From positions 261,355-325,354 of the forward strand of contig CALOAN010000021.1 in assembly GCA_942491345.1 (NCBI GenBank): a DNA stretch of 64,000 nucleotides, given 5' to 3'. The notes beneath the pieces were generated by a model. It was not told where the DNA came from. It saw only the letters and a list, made by a program, of their open reading frames with translations, and searched no databases. The DNA is from an uncultured actinomycete (GTDB taxonomy: Bacteria > Actinomycetota > Acidimicrobiia > Spongiisociales > UBA5794). Both the position numbers and the translations under genes were made by a program. This document shows, in pieces, positions 1 to 42,981 of this stretch; within the stretch, counting starts at the first letter, position 1; the number at the start of each line of letters is the position of its first letter.

Positions 1-214
1 GCTGAGGCCAACGGTGTATGTCTCGACACGTGAGAGCGGCGTGTTGCTCACGGCTCGCCTTCTGGTGGAGGCGCGGTCGCGTCGCGGCGTTGAGGACGAG
101 TTCTGGCGAGCCGTCCTTGACGCATTCGCAGCGGAGCCGTCAGTCGAGCTGGCCTACCCGACGGTGCGGACCTACCTTCACGACCCCCTGATCGTTCGAA
201 AAGACTCAAGCTGA
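1..214 (+). CDS. 3' end of a possible MscS-like mechanosensitive channel gene (truncated by window edge)
   Basis: Frame is open from the window edge to the stop at 212-214. The tail ...SVELAYPTVRTYLHDPLIV resembles the C-terminal domain of MscS-family channels. Partial and weak. Confidence 0.3.
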   Translation, partial: LRPTVYVSTRESGVLLTARLLVEARSRRGVEDEFWRAVLDAFAAEPSVELAYPTVRTYLHDPLIVRKDSS

Positions 215-3945: not shown

Positions 3946-4698
3946 TCAGATGCCTGCCCCGTGGACGAGTGCGGGCTCGAGGACGATCGAGTCGGTAGGA
4001 CTGTCGCCATTCACGCGCTCTTCGAGCTGTTGCACCCGTTCGAAGAGGATCTCGATGACCCGAACGGCATGGTCGTCGCCACTCTCTTCTAGCGCCAAGC
4101 TCAACGCCGGTGCACCCGGAACGTGCTCGTCGATCACACGACCGGCCAATCCCACGACGGTCGAACCGGCCGGCACATCTTTCACGACCACGGCCCCGGC
4201 CCCTACTCGCGCGCCCGATCCGACAGCGACGGCGCCCAGGATCTTCGCCCCGGCTCCAACGACAACTCTGTCGCCGAGGGTTGGGTGCCGTTTCTGTTTC
4301 TTGAGGCTGGTGCCACCCAGCGTCACACCTTGGTAGAGCATGACGTCGTCACCGATCTCGGCGGTTTCGCCGATCACGACGCCCATGCCGTGGTCGATGA
4401 CGAACCGGCGTCCGATCGTTGCCCCGGGGTGGATTTCGATGCCGGTCACGGCGCGGCTCGCCTGGCTTGCCAGCCGCGCAATGAATGGATGACCCCCGGT
4501 CCACAGTCGATGAGCAAACCGATGAATCGTCACTGCGTGGAGTCCGGGATAGAGAAGGAGCACTTCGGCGACACTTCGGGCCGCGGGGTCGCGGTCGAAG
4601 ACGGCTTGAATATCCTCGCCGAGCCTCCCCCAGAGACGGAGCCACCATCGCCTGGGCCCTTGACGCCCGCTCGCGGGCACGGAAGTCGGACGAGTCAC
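3946..4698 (-). CDS. cysE: Serine O-acetyltransferase
   Basis: [20 protein letters not shown]...[44 protein letters not shown] (hexapeptide repeats). GTG start overlaps the cysK stop (GTGA at 4695-4698). Confidence 0.9.
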
Positions 4699-5645
4699 GG
4701 CGCGACGCTCGTTTCGTCATTCTGGGCCAGCCCCGCCGAGAGATAACGCTCGCCGGTGTCGGGCAGGATGACGACGATGAGCTTCCCTGTGTTCTCCGGC
4801 CGGTTCGCGACGACGAGAGCAGCGTTGAGAGCTGCTCCGCTTGAGATCCCCGCAAGGATTCCTTCCTCGCGTGCGAGACGGCGGGTGGTGTCGAAAGCTT
4901 CGTCGTTGGTGACGGTTATGATTTCGTCGATGATTTCCGGCCTGAGGACGTTTGGCACGAAGCCGGCTCCGATTCCCTGGATCTTGTGCGGACCCGGTTG
5001 ACCACCCGACAGGACGGGGGAGTCTGCCGGTTCGACCGCCACCACGTGCAGCGAGGGTTTCCGATCCTTGAGTACCTCGCTGACACCGGTGATCGTTCCG
5101 CCGGTACCGACTCCCGCCACGAAGATGTCGATGTCGCCGTCCGTATCAGACCAGATCTCTTCAGCGGTCGTTCGGCGGTGGATGTCCGGGTTGGCGGGAT
5201 TCGAGAACTGTCGGAGCATGACCGCATCGGGAATCTCTGCCGCGAGCTGTTCGGCTCTCGAGATGGCTCCGTTCATGCCGGTCGTTCCATCGGTGAGCAC
5301 AACCTCTGCGCCGAGCAGGCTCAGGAGCTGACGGCGTTCGATGCTCATCGTGTCCGGCATGGTCAGTACGAGTCGGTAGCCCTTGGCCGCTGCGGCGGAT
5401 GCCAATCCAATTCCGGTGTTGCCGCTTGTGGGTTCGACGAGCGTCGTTTCGCCAGGGCGCGCAGCACCCGCCCGCTCGGCAGCGTCGATCATGTTCAGGC
5501 CAATGCGGTCCTTCACGCTCGAGAGCGGATTGAACGACTCGACCTTCGCGACGATGCGAGCACCGCCGGTCGGAGAGAGGTGTCCAAGTTCGACGAGCGG
5601 TGTGCCGCCGATCGTCTCGGTGATATCGGAGAGTATCTGTCCCAT
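4695..5645 (-). CDS. cysK: Cysteine synthase A (O-acetylserine sulfhydrylase)
   Basis: IGGTPLVEL...[16 protein letters not shown]...[10 protein letters not shown] is PLP-enzyme typical. The start at 5645 has a GGAGGA RBS. The longer ORF to 5753 is rejected. Confidence 0.9.
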
Positions 5646-5659
5646 TGTGGAAGTCCTCC

Positions 5660-5690
5660 AAGAGAAAAGCCCGGGCGATGTGCCGCGGGC
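5660..5690 (-). terminator. Intrinsic terminator/attenuator hairpin between the Cys leader ORF and cysK
   Basis: Minus strand reads GCCCG(c)GG-cacaucg-CCCGGGC followed by UUUUCUCUU. It ends at the cysK RBS. Confidence 0.6.
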
Positions 5691-5715
5691 CGTGTGCGTC
5701 AGGATTGTGGGGGAA

Positions 5716-5793
5716 TCAGGGACAGCAACATCGTTCCGCGGTTGAGCGCGCACAAGCGCAGGCGGAGCAGCGGAAGTTGATGAACGTTCTCAT
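5716..5793 (-). CDS. Candidate Cys-rich leader peptide (25 aa: [25 protein letters not shown])
   Basis: ATG...TGA ORF read directly from the sequence. It has 6 Cys codons including UGU UGC UGU followed by CCC-stop, and lies between SulP and cysK. No obvious SD. Confidence 0.6.
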
Positions 5794-5916
5794 ATTCGGG
5801 TCGGGATGGTACCGGTGGGGGAGCGGCAATCGCACCGAGATTCGACAGCCCACCACCAGGGCGGTTGAAGAGGATCGCGAGCCGGGTTCACGTCGCCCGA
5901 TCCGCGATCGCCACTG

Positions 5917-7659
5917 CTACTGCTCTGTGGCTTCGTCCGATGGGAACTTGCTCAGGTGAATCTTGACGGCGGCAGCGATGTCGCTGTGAAAGTTCTCCCG
6001 TGGCATCACGTCGAGAAGACCGTCGCGTTCGAGCACCTCGGCCACCTGAGGTTTCACACGAGCCAGGTGCAGGTCGATGTTGCGTTGCTTGCCCGCCTCG
6101 GCGATTGCCTTGATCGTGTCCGCTCCCTCGGTATCGATGAAGTCGACACCTTCCATGCTCAGAATCACGCCGTTCAAGCCGGGCTCTTCGCGGATTCGAA
6201 TCTCCCGGAGATGATCGGCAAGCGCACCTGAGTTGACGAAGAACAGACCGCCGTCGAACCGCACGATGGCGAGGCCTGGGAAGGTCTCACCCTCCGGGTG
6301 GTTCTTGAGATCGAAGAACGCGTGAGTGCCCTTCTTCCGGCCGAGCTCGGGCATGTACGGAAGTGAGGCGACGGCCACCAGCCAAAGGAGCGAGAGTCCG
6401 ACGCCGATGAAGACACCCTGCAAGATGCCGAACGTCATAACGCCGAGCAACGCTGCCGTGGCGACCCAGAACTCGAATTGTTTGACGTCGTAGAGCCGTT
6501 TCATCTCGGGAACGTCCATCATCCCCATTACGACGGCCTGGATGATGATCGCCCCGAGGACGGCATCGGGCAGTTCCGAGAACATCGGGGCAAGGAATAG
6601 CAGTGTCAGGATGATGAGGACGGCCTGGAACAGGTTCGACACCTGTGACTTAGCGCCTGCCTGGTCGTTCACCGGGCTCTTTGACAGGCTCCCGTTGACG
6701 AACACACCCTGGAAGAGACCGGACGACACGTTGGAAACACCCTGTGCGAGAAGTTCCTGGTTGATGTCGATGCGGTAGTTGTGTTTCGAGGCGTAGTCCC
6801 GGACAGCTGCCGTCGTGACAGAGAACCCGATCAACAGTAAGCCGACGGCGCCGGCGATGATTGTGGCGAAGTTGTCGACGATGTACCCGATGTCGGGGAG
6901 GACCACGGCCGGGAGGCCACTCGGCACCTCGGCGATGAGTTCGACGCCACGGTCACCAAGGTCGAGAATCAGCGTCGCGACGATGCCCAGGATCACCGCG
7001 AGGAGTGCGCCCGGGACCTTTGGGGCGTAGATGGCGACGCCGAAGACCAGGATCAGCGCCGCCACACCGACGACGACCGTGGTGCCGTTGGCGTCGGAAA
7101 GGCTCGTGACCCATGTCCACAGCTTCCCCCACGTGTTGGAACCGCCGGATTCGGTTCCGGTGATCTTGAACAGCTCGCCGGCGGCAACGTTGATCGCCAC
7201 TCCGAACGTGAACCCGGTGAGAACGCTGGCCGCGAGGAAGTCTGAGATCCAGCCCATCTTCAGCACGTACATGATGACGAAGAGCGCACCGGCCACGAGG
7301 ACGATCGAAGCCGCGAGCTGAATTGCTTCTTCGGATCCGGAAGAAGCGACGGCCAGGACTGCGGCGCCGAGGACCGCGGCGGTCGACGAACTCGGGCCCT
7401 GGGTGACCTGTTTCGACGTGGTGAAGAGAGCGAAGCCGATGAGTCCGGCCGCTGCCGCGTAGAGGCCGTACTGCACGGGTACGCCGCTGATCGTTGCGTA
7501 CCCGAGCGACGTCGGGACCATGAGTGCCCAGACGGAGAGACCCGCGATCAGGTCGCCCTTCAGCCAGTCCTTGTTGTAGTTGGGGAGCCAATGGAAGATC
7601 GGCATGATCCGGGCGAGTCCGGTCGGCGCCTCACTCTTGGTCTTCGTGTCGGCTGCCAC
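5917..7659 (-). CDS. SulP-family sulfate/anion permease with C-terminal STAS domain
   Basis: 580 aa polytopic protein. N-terminus has LKGDLIAGLSVWALMVPTSLGYA. C-terminal STAS-like part has VILSMEGVDFIDTEGADTI. Confidence 0.9.
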   Translation of the reverse strand: MAADTKTKSEAPTGLARIMPIFHWLPNYNKDWLKGDLIAGLSVWALMVPTSLGYATISGVPVQYGLYAAAAGLIGFALFTTSKQVTQGPSSSTAAVLGAAVLAVASSGSEEAIQLAASIVLVAGALFVIMYVLKMGWISDFLAASVLTGFTFGVAINVAAGELFKITGTESGGSNTWGKLWTWVTSLSDANGTTVVVGVAALILVFGVAIYAPKVPGALLAVILGIVATLILDLGDRGVELIAEVPSGLPAVVLPDIGYIVDNFATIIAGAVGLLLIGFSVTTAAVRDYASKHNYRIDINQELLAQGVSNVSSGLFQGVFVNGSLSKSPVNDQAGAKSQVSNLFQAVLIILTLLFLAPMFSELPDAVLGAIIIQAVVMGMMDVPEMKRLYDVKQFEFWVATAALLGVMTFGILQGVFIGVGLSLLWLVAVASLPYMPELGRKKGTHAFFDLKNHPEGETFPGLAIVRFDGGLFFVNSGALADHLREIRIREEPGLNGVILSMEGVDFIDTEGADTIKAIAEAGKQRNIDLHLARVKPQVAEVLERDGLLDVMPRENFHSDIAAAVKIHLSKFPSDEATEQ

Positions 7660-7857: not shown

Positions 7858-10335
7858 ATGGTGGCGATGGCGACCCAACCGACCACCGGACGGGGCACCC
7901 TCGGCACTTTCGCCGGGGTGTTCACGCCGTCGATCCTCACCATCCTCGGGATCATCCTGTTCCTGCGGATGGGGTTCGTGGTCGGCAACGCCGGACTCAC
8001 CCAGACGCTGCTGATCATCGGCCTGGCGACCGGCGTCGCGGTACTGACGAGCATCTCGCTTGCGGCTATCGCCACCAACATTCAAGTGAGGGGAGGCGGC
8101 GACTACTACCTCATCTCGAGGACACTCGGCGTGGAGTTCGGCGGTGCCATCGGGGTTGTCCTCTTCCTGGCACAGTCGGTCTCGGTCGGGTTCTATGCGA
8201 TCGGCTTCGGTGAGATCACCGCCGACCTCCTCGGATTCGACTCGAAGATCTCGGTGCAGATCATTGCTCTGCTCGCCGTCCTCCTGCTGTCCGGATTCGT
8301 GTGGGCCGGCGCCGACGTCGCCAGCCGGTTCCAGTTCGTCGTGATGGCCTTCCTCGTTGCCGCTCTCCTTTCCTTCTATGCCGGTGCCTTCGGCTCTGCA
8401 GATTCGGTGACCCTCAGTGAGGGCTGGAGTTCGCCGCCGGAGGCACTCGGCTTTTGGGCCGTGTTCGCCATCTTCTTCCCCGCCGTCACCGGCTTCACTC
8501 AGGGCGTCAGCATGTCCGGGGATCTCAAGGATCCAGCCAAGAGCCTGCCGCGCGGAACGTTCGCCGCGGTTGGCCTGTCGACGATCGTGTACGTGACCGT
8601 GGCGATCATCCTCGCGGCGTCGGTGCCGCAGATTCTCCTGGTGGACGATGCAGGAGAGGCGATGCGCACGATCGCCCTGATCGGACCGCTCATCGTCATC
8701 GGAGTCATCGCCGCGACGCTTTCGTCGGCGATGGCCTCGTTCCTCGGTGCTCCGCGCATCCTTCAGTCGCTGGCCTCGGATCGCGTGTTCCCGGTGCTCA
8801 ACGTCTTCGCCAGGGGTCACGGACCGCAGTCGAATCCGCGCCTGGCGGCGCTGCTCTCGCTCGCGATCGCGATCCTCACCCTCGGCCTCGGCAGCCTCGA
8901 TGCCATTGCGGCGGTGGTGTCGATGTTCTTCCTCATCTCCTACGGACTGCTCAACTACGCGACGTACTGGGAAGCACGCGCCAAGAGCCCGTCATTCCGC
9001 CCCCGGTTCCGATTCTTCGATCAACGCCTCAGCCTCCTCGGAGCCGTCGCCTGCCTTGGTGCGATGCTGGCGATCAATGTGATCGCCGGCGCTGCGGCGC
9101 TGCTCGTCATGTTCGGCGTATACCAGTACCTCTCCCGACGACGGTCGCCGGAACGCTGGGCCGACTCTGCGCCATCTCATTACTTCCAGCGAGCGACCGA
9201 GAGCATCCGTTCCCTATCCAAAGAAGAGCAACACGCCCGCAATTGGCGCCCGCAGGTGCTCGCATTCTCAGCGGACCCGCGGCGTCGCGAACGGCTGATC
9301 CGCTTCGCATCGTGGCTCGAGGGAGGAAGCGGCTTTACCGCCGCGATCCGCGTGCTGGAAGGTGAAGGCGCTCTCATGCGCCGCGAGCGAGACCGGGCAG
9401 AGGCTGAGCTTCGCGAGCAGATCGAACAGCTGGACCTCGATGTCTACTCGCGTGTTGTCCTAGCAGCGGACTCGATGGAGGGATTGCCGGTGGTGGTGCA
9501 GTCGTTCGGAATCGGCGCGCTGGAGGCGAACACGGCCTTGTTTGGCTGGCCGGAGGATCCGAACGAGGAGCGTCGTGTCCCGTACATCCGATCCCTCCTC
9601 GACATCTCCCGGCTCGGGGTGAACGTCGTCGCGATGTGGAGCGATGAACAACGCTGGGGGGCCATGACGGCGCGGTCCAGGCGAAACCGCCGAATCGATG
9701 TCTGGTGGAACGACGGCGACTCGAGCCGCCTGGCGCTGCTGGTCGCGTACCTCTTCACACGGAACTCGGAGTGGTCACGCGCCTCGATTCGTGTTCTGGC
9801 CGGGGCCAGCGCGGAAGGCCTCGTCCAGCGGCGTGCCGAGCTAGCCGCGATGCTCGAGGAGGCTCGAATCCAGGCCGACGTCGTTTGCCTTATCGAACCT
9901 GACCAGGCGACCATCGTCAACGCGTGTGCCGATGCAGCCTTGGTCCTCGTCACCATGCGGATCCGAGGCGACGACACGTTGGATGCCCTCGGCGGTGATC
10001 TTGACCTGCTCCTGCGCCGCCTGCCTATGGCGGCCGCAGTACTGGCGGGAGAGTCGTTCGATCTCCTTGCCGGACCCGAATCTGGTCATCATGAATCGCT
10101 GACGGAGGCGGAGGAGGCGCTCGCGGAGGCCAAAGCACGGCTTGCGACGCTCGAGAAGAAGCTGGTTGAGGCCTCGGCAGCTCTTGAGGTCGCGGTCGCG
10201 ACCGACGGGTCTGGTCCGGGCGACGACTTCGAGGACCTCGACCGTCAGCGCGAGATCGTGCTGCGGCGGACCATCAAGGCTCGCGTTCGCGTCGAATCAG
10301 CGCAGGCCGACGTCGATGCGTTGCTGGTCCCTTAG
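7858..10335 (+). CDS. Cation-chloride cotransporter-like (SLC12/CCC, APC superfamily) transporter with large cytoplasmic C-terminal domain
   Basis: GTLGTFAGVFTPSILTILGIILFLRMGFVVGNAGL is the typical CCC N-terminal TM1 motif. About 12 TM segments are followed by a roughly 350-aa soluble domain. Confidence 0.8.
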   Translation: MVAMATQPTTGRGTLGTFAGVFTPSILTILGIILFLRMGFVVGNAGLTQTLLIIGLATGVAVLTSISLAAIATNIQVRGGGDYYLISRTLGVEFGGAIGVVLFLAQSVSVGFYAIGFGEITADLLGFDSKISVQIIALLAVLLLSGFVWAGADVASRFQFVVMAFLVAALLSFYAGAFGSADSVTLSEGWSSPPEALGFWAVFAIFFPAVTGFTQGVSMSGDLKDPAKSLPRGTFAAVGLSTIVYVTVAIILAASVPQILLVDDAGEAMRTIALIGPLIVIGVIAATLSSAMASFLGAPRILQSLASDRVFPVLNVFARGHGPQSNPRLAALLSLAIAILTLGLGSLDAIAAVVSMFFLISYGLLNYATYWEARAKSPSFRPRFRFFDQRLSLLGAVACLGAMLAINVIAGAAALLVMFGVYQYLSRRRSPERWADSAPSHYFQRATESIRSLSKEEQHARNWRPQVLAFSADPRRRERLIRFASWLEGGSGFTAAIRVLEGEGALMRRERDRAEAELREQIEQLDLDVYSRVVLAADSMEGLPVVVQSFGIGALEANTALFGWPEDPNEERRVPYIRSLLDISRLGVNVVAMWSDEQRWGAMTARSRRNRRIDVWWNDGDSSRLALLVAYLFTRNSEWSRASIRVLAGASAEGLVQRRAELAAMLEEARIQADVVCLIEPDQATIVNACADAALVLVTMRIRGDDTLDALGGDLDLLLRRLPMAAAVLAGESFDLLAGPESGHHESLTEAEEALAEAKARLATLEKKLVEASAALEVAVATDGSGPGDDFEDLDRQREIVLRRTIKARVRVESAQADVDALLVP

Positions 10336-10628: not shown

Positions 10629-10666
10629 AGAGGCGACCTCGCACTCGAGGTCGCCTCTTCTTCGTT
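10629..10666. terminator. Bidirectional intrinsic terminator between convergent genes
   Basis: AGAGGCGACCTCG-cact-CGAGGTCGCCTCT (13-bp stem) followed by tcttcgtt. Confidence 0.7.
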
Positions 10667-40451: not shown

Positions 40452-42916
<2,465 letters not shown>

Positions 42917-42933
42917 TCAGTTGATGGTCGGTG

Positions 42934-42981
42934 CTACGCGACAGCTCCACACGGCTTCATATGTGCCATGGGCATCATCAT
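42934..42981 (-). CDS. Candidate Met-rich leader peptide (MMMPMAHMKPCGAVA; possibly 22 aa from an in-frame ATG at 43002)
   Basis: ATG ATG ATG CCC ATG GCA CAT ATG AAG CCG TGT GGA GCT GTC GCG TAG read directly from the sequence. 5 of the first 8 codons are AUG. No obvious SD. Confidence 0.6.
   Translation of the reverse strand: MMMPMAHMKPCGAVA

Follow-up and report, generated by a model that had tools for sequence, protein, structure and literature searches.

The minus strand of the DNA analyzed here, a 64-kb stretch of contig CALOAN010000021.1 from an uncultured actinomycete (hereafter, the window), carries a short open reading frame (sORF) rich in Cys codons between a SulP gene (5917-7659) and cysK (4695-5645). 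The sORF is followed by a hairpin with a U-run, a Shine-Dalgarno (SD) sequence and the cysK-cysE operon (Table 1). Matches to NCBIfam assigned cysK to TIGR01139 (448 bits) and cysE to TIGR01172, and SulP was also confirmed. Six of the 25 sORF codons encode Cys (codons 9, 12, 14 and 22-24), and the last of these is followed by the Pro codon CCC and the stop codon. The sequence statements of a first-pass annotation of this DNA (the sORF, its Cys codons, the hairpin, the U-run and GGAGGA) were all confirmed to the base. Only 23 nucleotides (nt) lie between the hairpin and the cysK ATG, which leaves no room for a promoter of cysK itself, and expression of cysK must therefore read through the hairpin. 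We consider it probable, on balance, that the element is a ribosome-mediated transcription attenuator of cysK-cysE that reads the supply of cysteinyl-tRNA. The first-pass annotation had proposed that the leader peptide and terminator form a Cys attenuator of cysK-cysE, and conservation of the arrangement across 15 loci supports this proposal.

Table 1. Features of the cysK-cysE leader element, RNA structures predicted for it, and leader peptides of related loci. Positions are window coordinates, except those given in RNA numbering (nt), in which the A of the sORF start codon is nt 1 and the window coordinate equals 5794 - n.
Feature	Position	Strand	Remarks
-10-like promoter box, TACCAT	5806-5811	minus	12 nt 5' of sORF ATG; sequence read directly; transcription start site (TSS) inferred
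Leader sORF, 25 codons + UGA	5716-5793	minus	ATG at 5793, TGA at 5718-5716; kept in 14 other loci
Region 1, UUCCGC (Phe7-Arg8 codons), partner of region 2	5770-5775	minus	Within 1:2 hairpin nt 17-62; seen in minimum free energy (MFE) folds
First Cys cluster, codons 9, 12, 14 (UGC, UGC, UGU)	5752-5769	minus	Proposed main sensor codons; positions invariant in close clade
Region 2, CCGCGGAA (Thr18-Ala19-Glu20 codons)	5734-5741	minus	Partner of region 1 or of terminator 5' arm
Terminal UGU-UGC-UGU-CCC-UGA (Cys22-24, Pro25, stop)	5716-5730	minus	Distal 5' strand of predicted antiterminator
C/A-rich, G-poor spacer	5692-5715	minus	12 C, 2 G of 24; 3' part GACGCACAC pairs with terminal Cys codons in predicted antiterminator
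Region 3, GACGCACACGGCCCGCGG	5683-5700	minus	3' strand of predicted antiterminator; includes terminator 5' arm (5683-5691)
Terminator-like hairpin, GGCCCGCGG-CACAUCG-CCCGGGC	5669-5691	minus	Starts 24 nt after sORF stop; free energy (dG) about -16 to -17 kcal/mol
U-rich tract, UUUUCUCUU	5660-5668	minus	Abuts stem directly
cysK SD, GGAGGA	5654-5659	minus	Invariant in alignment A2
Operon cysK (4695-5645) + cysE (3946-4698)	3946-5645	minus	4-nt overlap; cysK ATG at 5645; NCBIfam matches above cut-off
Predicted 1:2 hairpin	nt 17-62		UUCCGC 19-24 with GCGGAA 55-60 + inner stem; -16.2 kcal/mol (RNAfold)
Predicted 2:3 helix, 16 base pairs (bp)	nt 51-113		CCGCGG 53-58 with CCGCGG 106-111; CG, UGU, GC, GUC (codons 21-25) with GACGCACACG 94-103; -22.6 kcal/mol (RNAfold)
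Predicted 3:4 terminator	nt 101-127		-16.6 kcal/mol (RNAfold)
L081 leader peptide			MRTATHFRCPACACARSAAERCCCP
L164 leader peptide			MRNHFDLRCTACLCACSAADRCCSP
L165 leader peptide			MRVFTPGRCPSCCCGYPAGERCLCP
L161 leader peptide			VNTANSTRHCCCACACAQLAADRCCRS
L167 leader peptide			VNTTTSNRSVCCACACAYAVAERCSCP
L169 leader peptide			MLSVRALRNCCHPSGFPAGENC
L175 leader peptide			MSSAQTFRCCCCPVGFPAGEIC
L170 leader peptide			MNSAHRLKRPCRCTSGTRCPAGVR
L171 leader peptide			MKSVQSFACCCSNGSRVGEIC
L173 leader peptide			MKPAETFACCRPIGSIAGEVW

In the comparison of cysK-upstream regions that the first-pass annotation had suggested, the ORF, its in-frame Cys codons, the hairpin, the U-run and their spacing proved to be kept across 15 distinct loci, down to 72% CysK identity. 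These loci are the window, L001, L081, L082, L088, L161, L164, L165, L167, L169-L171 and L173-L175, and their CysK proteins are 72-100% identical to that of the window; the 14 besides the window are from 19 retrieved at 72-91% CysK identity, the near-duplicates L162, L163, L166 and L168 not being counted. Scans of genome and metagenome collections with CysK yielded four close relatives only (L001, L081, L082 and L088; 86-91% identity), and the other matches were mostly from other phyla, at 60-70% identity. In a large protein database, CysK identity formed a gradient down to 70%, with sources named as Acidimicrobiia and Actinomycetia metagenome-assembled genomes (MAGs).

All 15 loci share the order TANNNT box, sORF, spacer, GC hairpin, SD and cysK-cysE. 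Each has exactly one TANNNT hexamer, 7-12 nt before the sORF start, and no SD for the sORF. The sORF spans 21-27 codons with 2-7 in-frame Cys codons, the spacer is 22-32 nt long, and the GC hairpin has a predicted energy of -15 to -20 kcal/mol in every locus. The U-tract holds 5-8 U in 9 nt in 10 of the 12 sequences scored and likewise in L173 (AUUUUCUUUU, read by eye). Further, cysE comes after cysK in the related loci too. The gene 5' of the element varies and encodes SulP, a cupin, a guanylate cyclase, an SLH protein or a PIN toxin, indicating that the element belongs to cysK-cysE and not to SulP.

The Cys codons themselves are variable in arrangement. Consecutive Cys residues (CC to CCCC) are present in 13 of the 15 loci, the window having CCC at codons 22-24, and are lacking in L170 and L174. 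The terminal Cys stretch reads CCRS, CSCP, CCSP, CLCP, a single C, or W. When 160 CysK loci were scanned for sORFs with Cys runs, the only finds outside the clade were L139 and the weak candidates L077 and L099. L139 (contig Ga0326728_10173666; 51% GC; CysK 66% identical) is from an unrelated organism; its sORF, MHRGLVTNLVIHACCCC followed by a stop codon, lies about 60-110 nt upstream of cysK, ends 58 nt before it, and is accompanied by no obvious hairpin. This sORF may represent a separate polycysteine leader, beyond the present clade.

Selection appears to act on both the codons and the RNA of the leader. Across 10 diverged sequences, 48 of 62 TGY triplets are in frame 0 (p = 1.5e-12). In the close clade, the Cys positions are invariant with synonymous swaps of UGC and UGU, and the N-terminal codons drift without frameshift. 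Identity in this clade is 87-93% for sORF codons 7-26, 85-88% for the spacer and 5' arm, and 47-67% for sORF codons 2-6; synonymous third positions of cysK are 57-62% identical. Because all codon positions are conserved well above the synonymous sites of cysK, the leader is evidently constrained as RNA. The codons of the conserved non-Cys residues, Phe-Arg (UUCCGC) and Ala-Glu (GCGGAA), are exact complements, and RNA pairing of these codons thus explains why the residues are conserved.

These observations bear on an explanation without ribosome-mediated sensing, namely that the product of the sORF, co-transcribed with cysK, is a Cys-rich micropeptide with a metal- or redox-related function of its own, or that the ORF is incidental to a ligand-binding RNA. 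The CxxCxC and CCC motifs do resemble metal-binding peptides, and some non-Cys residues are conserved (F-R and A-E-R or A-G-E). Yet these residues are exactly those whose codons form helices (1:2 and 2:3), and conservation extends to all codon positions. The N-terminus and the length vary, the terminal Cys is replaced with Trp in L173, and the association is with cysK-cysE only, the upstream neighbors changing. A ligand-binding RNA is disfavored by an Rfam covariance-model scan of 5400-6100, in which neither strand gave a match at E<=10, and the in-frame enrichment of TGY argues against a purely non-coding RNA. We find this explanation barely credible.

As the first-pass annotation noted, no SD is visible for the sORF. 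The conserved TANNNT box, 7-12 nt upstream, implies that the mRNA has no leader or a short one, and this would explain the absence. The box lies 7-8 nt upstream in L161, L167, L170, L171 and L173, a distance compatible with a leaderless start, and 11-12 nt upstream in the window clade, where it implies a leader of about 4-6 nt. Judging from the position of the box, which sets the putative TSS, initiation at the sORF is probably of the leaderless type. In-frame GTG codons at 5835 and 5853 on the minus strand would lengthen the ORF to 39 or 45 codons; we rejected them and took ATG 5793 as the start because both lie 5' of the -10 box, which is conserved, and relatives do not keep them. Another motif, GCGA(G)ATTG(C/G)C, is located 12 nt 5' of the -10 box (5823-5833, minus strand; columns about 55-66 of alignment A1), and is kept in the five closest loci and lost in more distant ones. 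It is too near the -10 box for a canonical -35 element and may therefore be a regulator site.

Two pairings pointed out in the first-pass annotation, UUCCGC with GCGGAA and CCGCGG with CCGCGG, both occur in RNAfold structures and belong to the predicted 1:2 hairpin and 2:3 helix, respectively. A third, UGUGCGCG with CGCG(G)CACA, did not hold up, since codons 14-16 vary without compensation. It was discarded as a trait of the family together with the helix of CGAUGU-U-GCUGU with GCGGCACAUCG, because the positions with which they would pair (codons 14-16; loop nt 3-7) vary uncompensated. The conserved candidate antiterminator, as modeled, is CCGCGG, extended by CG, UGU, GC and GUC, against GACGCACACGGCCCGCGG. 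When window-type transcripts were cut off before the 3' arm, the 2:3 helix was predicted for all of them; L169 showed pairing of the 5' arm with region 2 only with a ribosome placed on Cys10/11. The 1:2 helix UUCCGC:GCGGAA is found in the window clade and is weakened in L001, L164, L161 and L167; L173 has an analogous helix, UUCGCCUGU:GCGGGCGAA.

The conserved segment of region 2 consists of the Ala-Glu or Ala-Gly codons (GCGG..). In 10 of 11 sequences, no segment forms a better duplex with the terminator 5' arm than region 2 does, and its distance to the stop codon is always 16-27 nt. In more distant members the stem is kept, although its inner part is different (GGCCCGC-ACCA-GCGGGCC), and their region 2 (GCGGGCG or GUGGGCG) nearly copies the terminator 3' arm (GCGGGCC), which is the classic signature of an attenuator. 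In alignment A2, which comprises ten window-type sequences, the terminator has 100% of its cells paired, with one compensatory change from G-C to A-U (L161). The 2:3 helix has 92% of its cells paired, with one double change and several breaks, and its covariation is not significant. Near-invariance of the paired nucleotides is expected if each takes part in two structures.

In the attenuation mechanism that these structures suggest, transcription would start at, or a few bases before, the sORF AUG, and initiation would be of the leaderless type. With plentiful cysteinyl-tRNA, the ribosome would run through the 25 codons to Pro-UGA, covering region 2 and the terminal Cys codons, and after its release region 1 (UUCCGC) would re-pair with region 2 (GCGGAA) and keep it unavailable. 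The terminator 5' arm would then be free, the GC hairpin would form before the U-run, and most transcripts would end near 5660, before the cysK SD. When cysteinyl-tRNA is scarce, the ribosome would stall at Cys codon 9, 12 or 14 and cover region 1. Region 2, thus freed, and the downstream Cys codons (CCGCGG..CG.UGU.GC.GUC) could pair with GACGCACACGGCCCGCGG as it emerges; this antiterminator would lock the terminator 5' arm, allowing RNA polymerase to read into cysK-cysE. The element most likely switches cysK-cysE on when cysteine runs short.

Folding with masks for the ribosome was done on transcripts ending before the 3' arm or before the U-tract. The U-tract was left out because it would still be part of the RNA:DNA hybrid when the outcome is decided. 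With the U-tract excluded, the terminator probability in the window was 0.93 if no ribosome was placed and 0.97 if one was at the stop codon; it fell to 0.67 with a ribosome at Cys9 and to 0.41 at Cys12, and L081 and L164 showed a similar ribosome-dependent change.

Several results weigh against the attenuation reading. In L165, L161 and L167, the effective modeled stall is at the terminal Cys cluster and not the first, so that the model is not uniform across the family; a terminal stall lowers the terminator probability there because UGCUGCG of the first cluster then pairs with CGCGGCA (5' arm and loop). At equilibrium, 5 of 14 sequences (L088, L082, L169, L175 and L170) show essentially no ribosome-dependent change, and the change in L173 is only 0.02. 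When the U-tract is included, the terminator wins at full equilibrium in every ribosome state (P 0.83-1.0), although equilibrium folding of the full leader is uninformative for a kinetic switch and the win arises partly from an artefactual helix between the 5' end and the U-tract. Any switch must consequently be kinetic, as the switch in classical attenuators is assumed to be. In single sequences, region 2 matches the 5' arm only modestly better than shuffled sequences do (p 0.03-0.35, one <0.001). Statistically meaningful covariation for the antiterminator or the 1:2 helix was not detected in A2, where the variable pairs mostly break, and variation in A2 is too small for covariation tests of the antiterminator, terminator and start-codon helix to decide. 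The U-tract is weak in L169 (4/9) and L175 (4/9, by eye) and is as good as absent in L170 (2/9) and in L174, which has the same tail. Further, canonical or simple terminator-like sites showed no overall excess in the 60 kb scanned, so that intrinsic termination is a putative trait of this organism.

The last of these points concerns the end of the sORF. In the window, a ribosome that stalled at Cys22-24 would hide region 2 and should favor termination, which is the wrong polarity for these three codons. The terminal Cys-Cys-Cys-Pro-stop is therefore the weak point of the attenuation model; pairing of UGY with RCA in the spacer, or parking of the ribosome over region 2, are possible roles. The terminal CCC-Pro-stop, for which the first-pass annotation had been unable to account, is not a trait of the family: Pro-stop occurs in 8 of the 9 distinct sequences of the window's own subgroup, and elsewhere the peptides end in RS, C, W or R. 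Absence of Pro-stop from the wider family implies that it is not essential.

The terminal codons would have the right polarity in a translational attenuator of the mycobacterial Ms5788A type. Here the 3' end of the sORF, CUGUCCC (nt 69-75), would pair with the cysK start (the G of AUG and GGACAG) and block initiation; stalling of the ribosome on Cys22-24 or at Pro-stop would free the cysK start, and the hairpin would be a clamp or a constitutive partial terminator. This would suit the terminal Cys-Cys-Cys-Pro codons and explain the CCC codon, and the sole Cys sORF dissected experimentally works translationally. The MFE structures of four loci (the window, L081, L088 and L082) contain a perfect helix of 7 bp, CUGUCCC:GGGACAG. 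In all of these but L081 it has a probability of 0.98-0.99, and a ribosome over codons 22-26 abolishes it. However, the helix vanishes from the MFE fold of the window once 21 nt of cysK are included, and it survives none of the sequence changes in the family (L001, L164 and L161); in A2, 90% of its cells are paired and changes only break it. The N-terminus of CysK is different in distant members, where SD or AUG is not consistently sequestered, and the translational model leaves the conserved U-run after the stem and the resemblance of region 2 to region 4 unexplained. We rejected sequestration of the SD or start codon as a general mechanism, as it is inconsistent across lineages, and regard the translational explanation as unlikely overall. 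A second, translational layer, in which CUGUCCC pairs with AUG-GGACAG of cysK, is possible in the window subgroup from the modeled folds, and is not a family feature. L081 carries CUGUCCC twice (1373-1379, Cys9-Pro10; 1421-1427, Cys24-Pro25), and in its model masking of the second copy lets the first pair with GGGACAG of cysK.

The spacer keeps its composition although its sequence changes between lineages: 172 of 351 nt across 14 loci are C (49%) and 34 are G (10%). Its possible functions include those of an unstructured loop in the antiterminator, a complement to UGY codons and a rut-like element. The last function would fit Rho-dependent polarity, in which fast exit of the ribosome exposes the C-rich spacer and downstream RNA to Rho. 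Recruitment of Rho would be prevented by a stalled ribosome or once cysK translation begins, and the hairpin would be a pause site or stabilizer. Besides the C-rich, G-poor spacer found in all 14 loci, the missing U-run in L170 and L174 is in line with this, and Rho was proposed for mycobacterial Cys leaders by Seliverstov et al. (PMC1262725). On the other hand, the spacer is only 22-32 nt long, and a stable hairpin and a gene led by an SD come immediately after it. The U-rich tract directly at the stem in most members fits an intrinsic terminator. Rho usually needs roughly 70-80 nt, which also counts against its involvement, and we regard this explanation as highly unlikely. No rival explains the conserved stem with its U-run and the mimicry of region 4 by region 2 as well as attenuation does.

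The element was also set against chance expectation. Cys-rich sORFs (>=4 Cys, >=15% Cys) numbered 1.7 per dinucleotide-shuffled window and 1 in the real window, and a Cys-rich sORF by itself is thus within chance expectation. Our energy-based scan of both strands of the window (128 kb) for hairpins with dG <= -12 directly followed by a U-run showed such sites to be rare. There were 3, against 1.5 on average in shuffles; one of them comes after the Cys leader ORF and another after a Met-rich leader ORF. Taking together its location and its conservation in 14 other loci, the element is far beyond chance. Its folding stability is unexceptional (z = -1.2 for the 161-nt region and z = -1.7 for the hairpin alone). 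A simple scan for consensus terminators and promoters did not pick up the hairpin, owing to a 1-nt bulge, and found no sigma-70 promoter at the locus.

The Met-rich leader ORF, MMMPMAHMKPCGAVA followed by a stop codon (42981 to 42934, minus strand; whole element 42872-42981), lies upstream of metY (41507-42823) and metX (40452-41510), which encode O-acetylhomoserine sulfhydrylase and homoserine O-acetyltransferase. It is followed by the hairpin GAUCCGCACCGGCGACGGGGCGGAUC (42906 to 42881; -17.1 kcal/mol), GUUUUGUUG and the SD GGGAGGGA, an architecture the same as that of the Cys leader. The strongest hairpin with a U-run in the window is at 10630-10657 on the plus strand (GAGGCGACCUCG-CACU-CGAGGUCGCCUC; -23.3 kcal/mol; then UUCUUCGUU), about 300 nt 3' of a gene similar to those of cation-chloride cotransporters (7858-10335). 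CysE, CysK and SulP (window 3946-7659) together contain 0 Cys in 1149 residues, as against six in the 25-codon leader. Sulfur-assimilation enzymes are known to be depleted of sulfur amino acids, and the lack of Cys in these three proteins fits this tendency.

A more elaborate version of the attenuation model makes use of both Cys clusters. The Cys codons (GC-UGY or UGC-UGC) can base-pair with CGCGGCA, an invariant stretch in the terminator 5' arm and loop, and whichever cluster is not covered by the stalled ribosome would act as the antiterminator strand. Termination would then occur only with the ribosome at Pro-stop, or after its release with the 1:2 helix re-formed. That the locus is the first cysteine-specific classical attenuator, with a leader peptide, an antiterminator, an intrinsic terminator, a leaderless or near-leaderless sORF, two Cys clusters and a paired Met attenuator, is a tentative claim that we hold to be rather doubtful as a whole. 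If metY-metX has such a paired attenuator, both sulfur amino-acid pathways would be ribosome-sensed in this lineage.

Classical attenuators include those of trp, his, leu, thr, ilv and pheA in Enterobacteria and those of trp and ilvB in Corynebacterium, Streptomyces and Mycobacterium. To our knowledge, cysteine has long been the amino acid without a classical attenuator. By comparative genomics, Seliverstov, Putzer, Gelfand and Lyubetsky (2005) described candidate actinobacterial Cys leaders, which are short ORFs with Cys runs near the stop codon, upstream of cys operons (Mycobacterium and P. acnes) and of cbs (B. longum), and which had no conserved terminator hairpins (PMC1262725); it was this lack that made them noteworthy. 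The first-pass annotation had noted correctly that these earlier leaders were without terminators. Canestrari et al. (2020) reported that mycobacterial polycysteine leaderless sORFs, the 'Cys ribulon', are cysteine-responsive (bioRxiv 10.1101/834739; Mol Microbiol 114:93). In that work, Ms5788A acts on translation, its polycysteine tract pairing with the SD region, and has no terminator; Rv2334A is an sORF upstream of cysK1-cysE, and the mechanism at loci other than Ms5788A was left open (bioRxiv 10.1101/834739). As late as 2026, the Cys sORFs were described as attenuators of translation (PMC13236596). The mycobacterial work, which the first-pass annotation did not cite, lowers the novelty of the present element. 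A Cys leader with an intrinsic terminator was not found in the full-text literature searched, which is not proof of absence. What is new here is the conserved putative intrinsic terminator with the predicted four-segment layout, in a different lineage; the type of sensor and the operon are known.

If the attenuation reading is true, transcriptional and translational read-outs have evolved from the same Cys sensor within one phylum. The locus would also be a compact natural test case for coupling leaderless translation to RNA polymerase tightly enough for attenuation. We know of no uncultured Acidimicrobiia-type genome in which such 25-codon leader genes have been called, and the element would aid annotation of the sulfur regulon in these genomes. 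Its practical value is modest, as it refines a known principle and does not introduce a new one.

Cys-rich ORFs upstream of cys operons are common to the present family and the leaders of Seliverstov et al. (2005), to which the present family adds a conserved hairpin and, in most members, a U-run. With the Cys ribulon it shares an unannotated, SD-less sORF with a Cys run near the stop codon, which here, judging from the -10 box, would likewise be at or near the 5' end of the transcript. It also shares the location directly upstream of cysteine operons, including the same cysK-cysE pair, and the proposed sensing by ribosome pausing on Cys codons. Unlike in Ms5788A, the hairpin, the U-run and the predicted 1:2/2:3/3:4 layout are conserved here and SD sequestration is not; unlike in the Cys ribulon, the host is Acidimicrobiia-like and not Mycobacterium, and the Cys codons are split into two clusters. 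The S-box, or S-adenosylmethionine (SAM), riboswitches and T-box leaders of Firmicutes likewise precede sulfur amino-acid genes and regulate premature termination in the 5' leader, as is predicted here. They sense SAM or uncharged tRNA directly by a structured RNA, whereas the present leader has a Cys-rich ORF and no Rfam match. The element differs from classical attenuators in that the amino acid is cysteine, the start is SD-less and probably leaderless, the sORF crosses region 2 with further Cys codons, and no Rfam leader model matches it. Judged from its sequence, it resembles them in having a leader ORF with codons for the end product, a putative intrinsic terminator before the first gene, predicted 1:2, 2:3 and 3:4 pairings that would be mutually exclusive, and a region 2 that resembles region 4.

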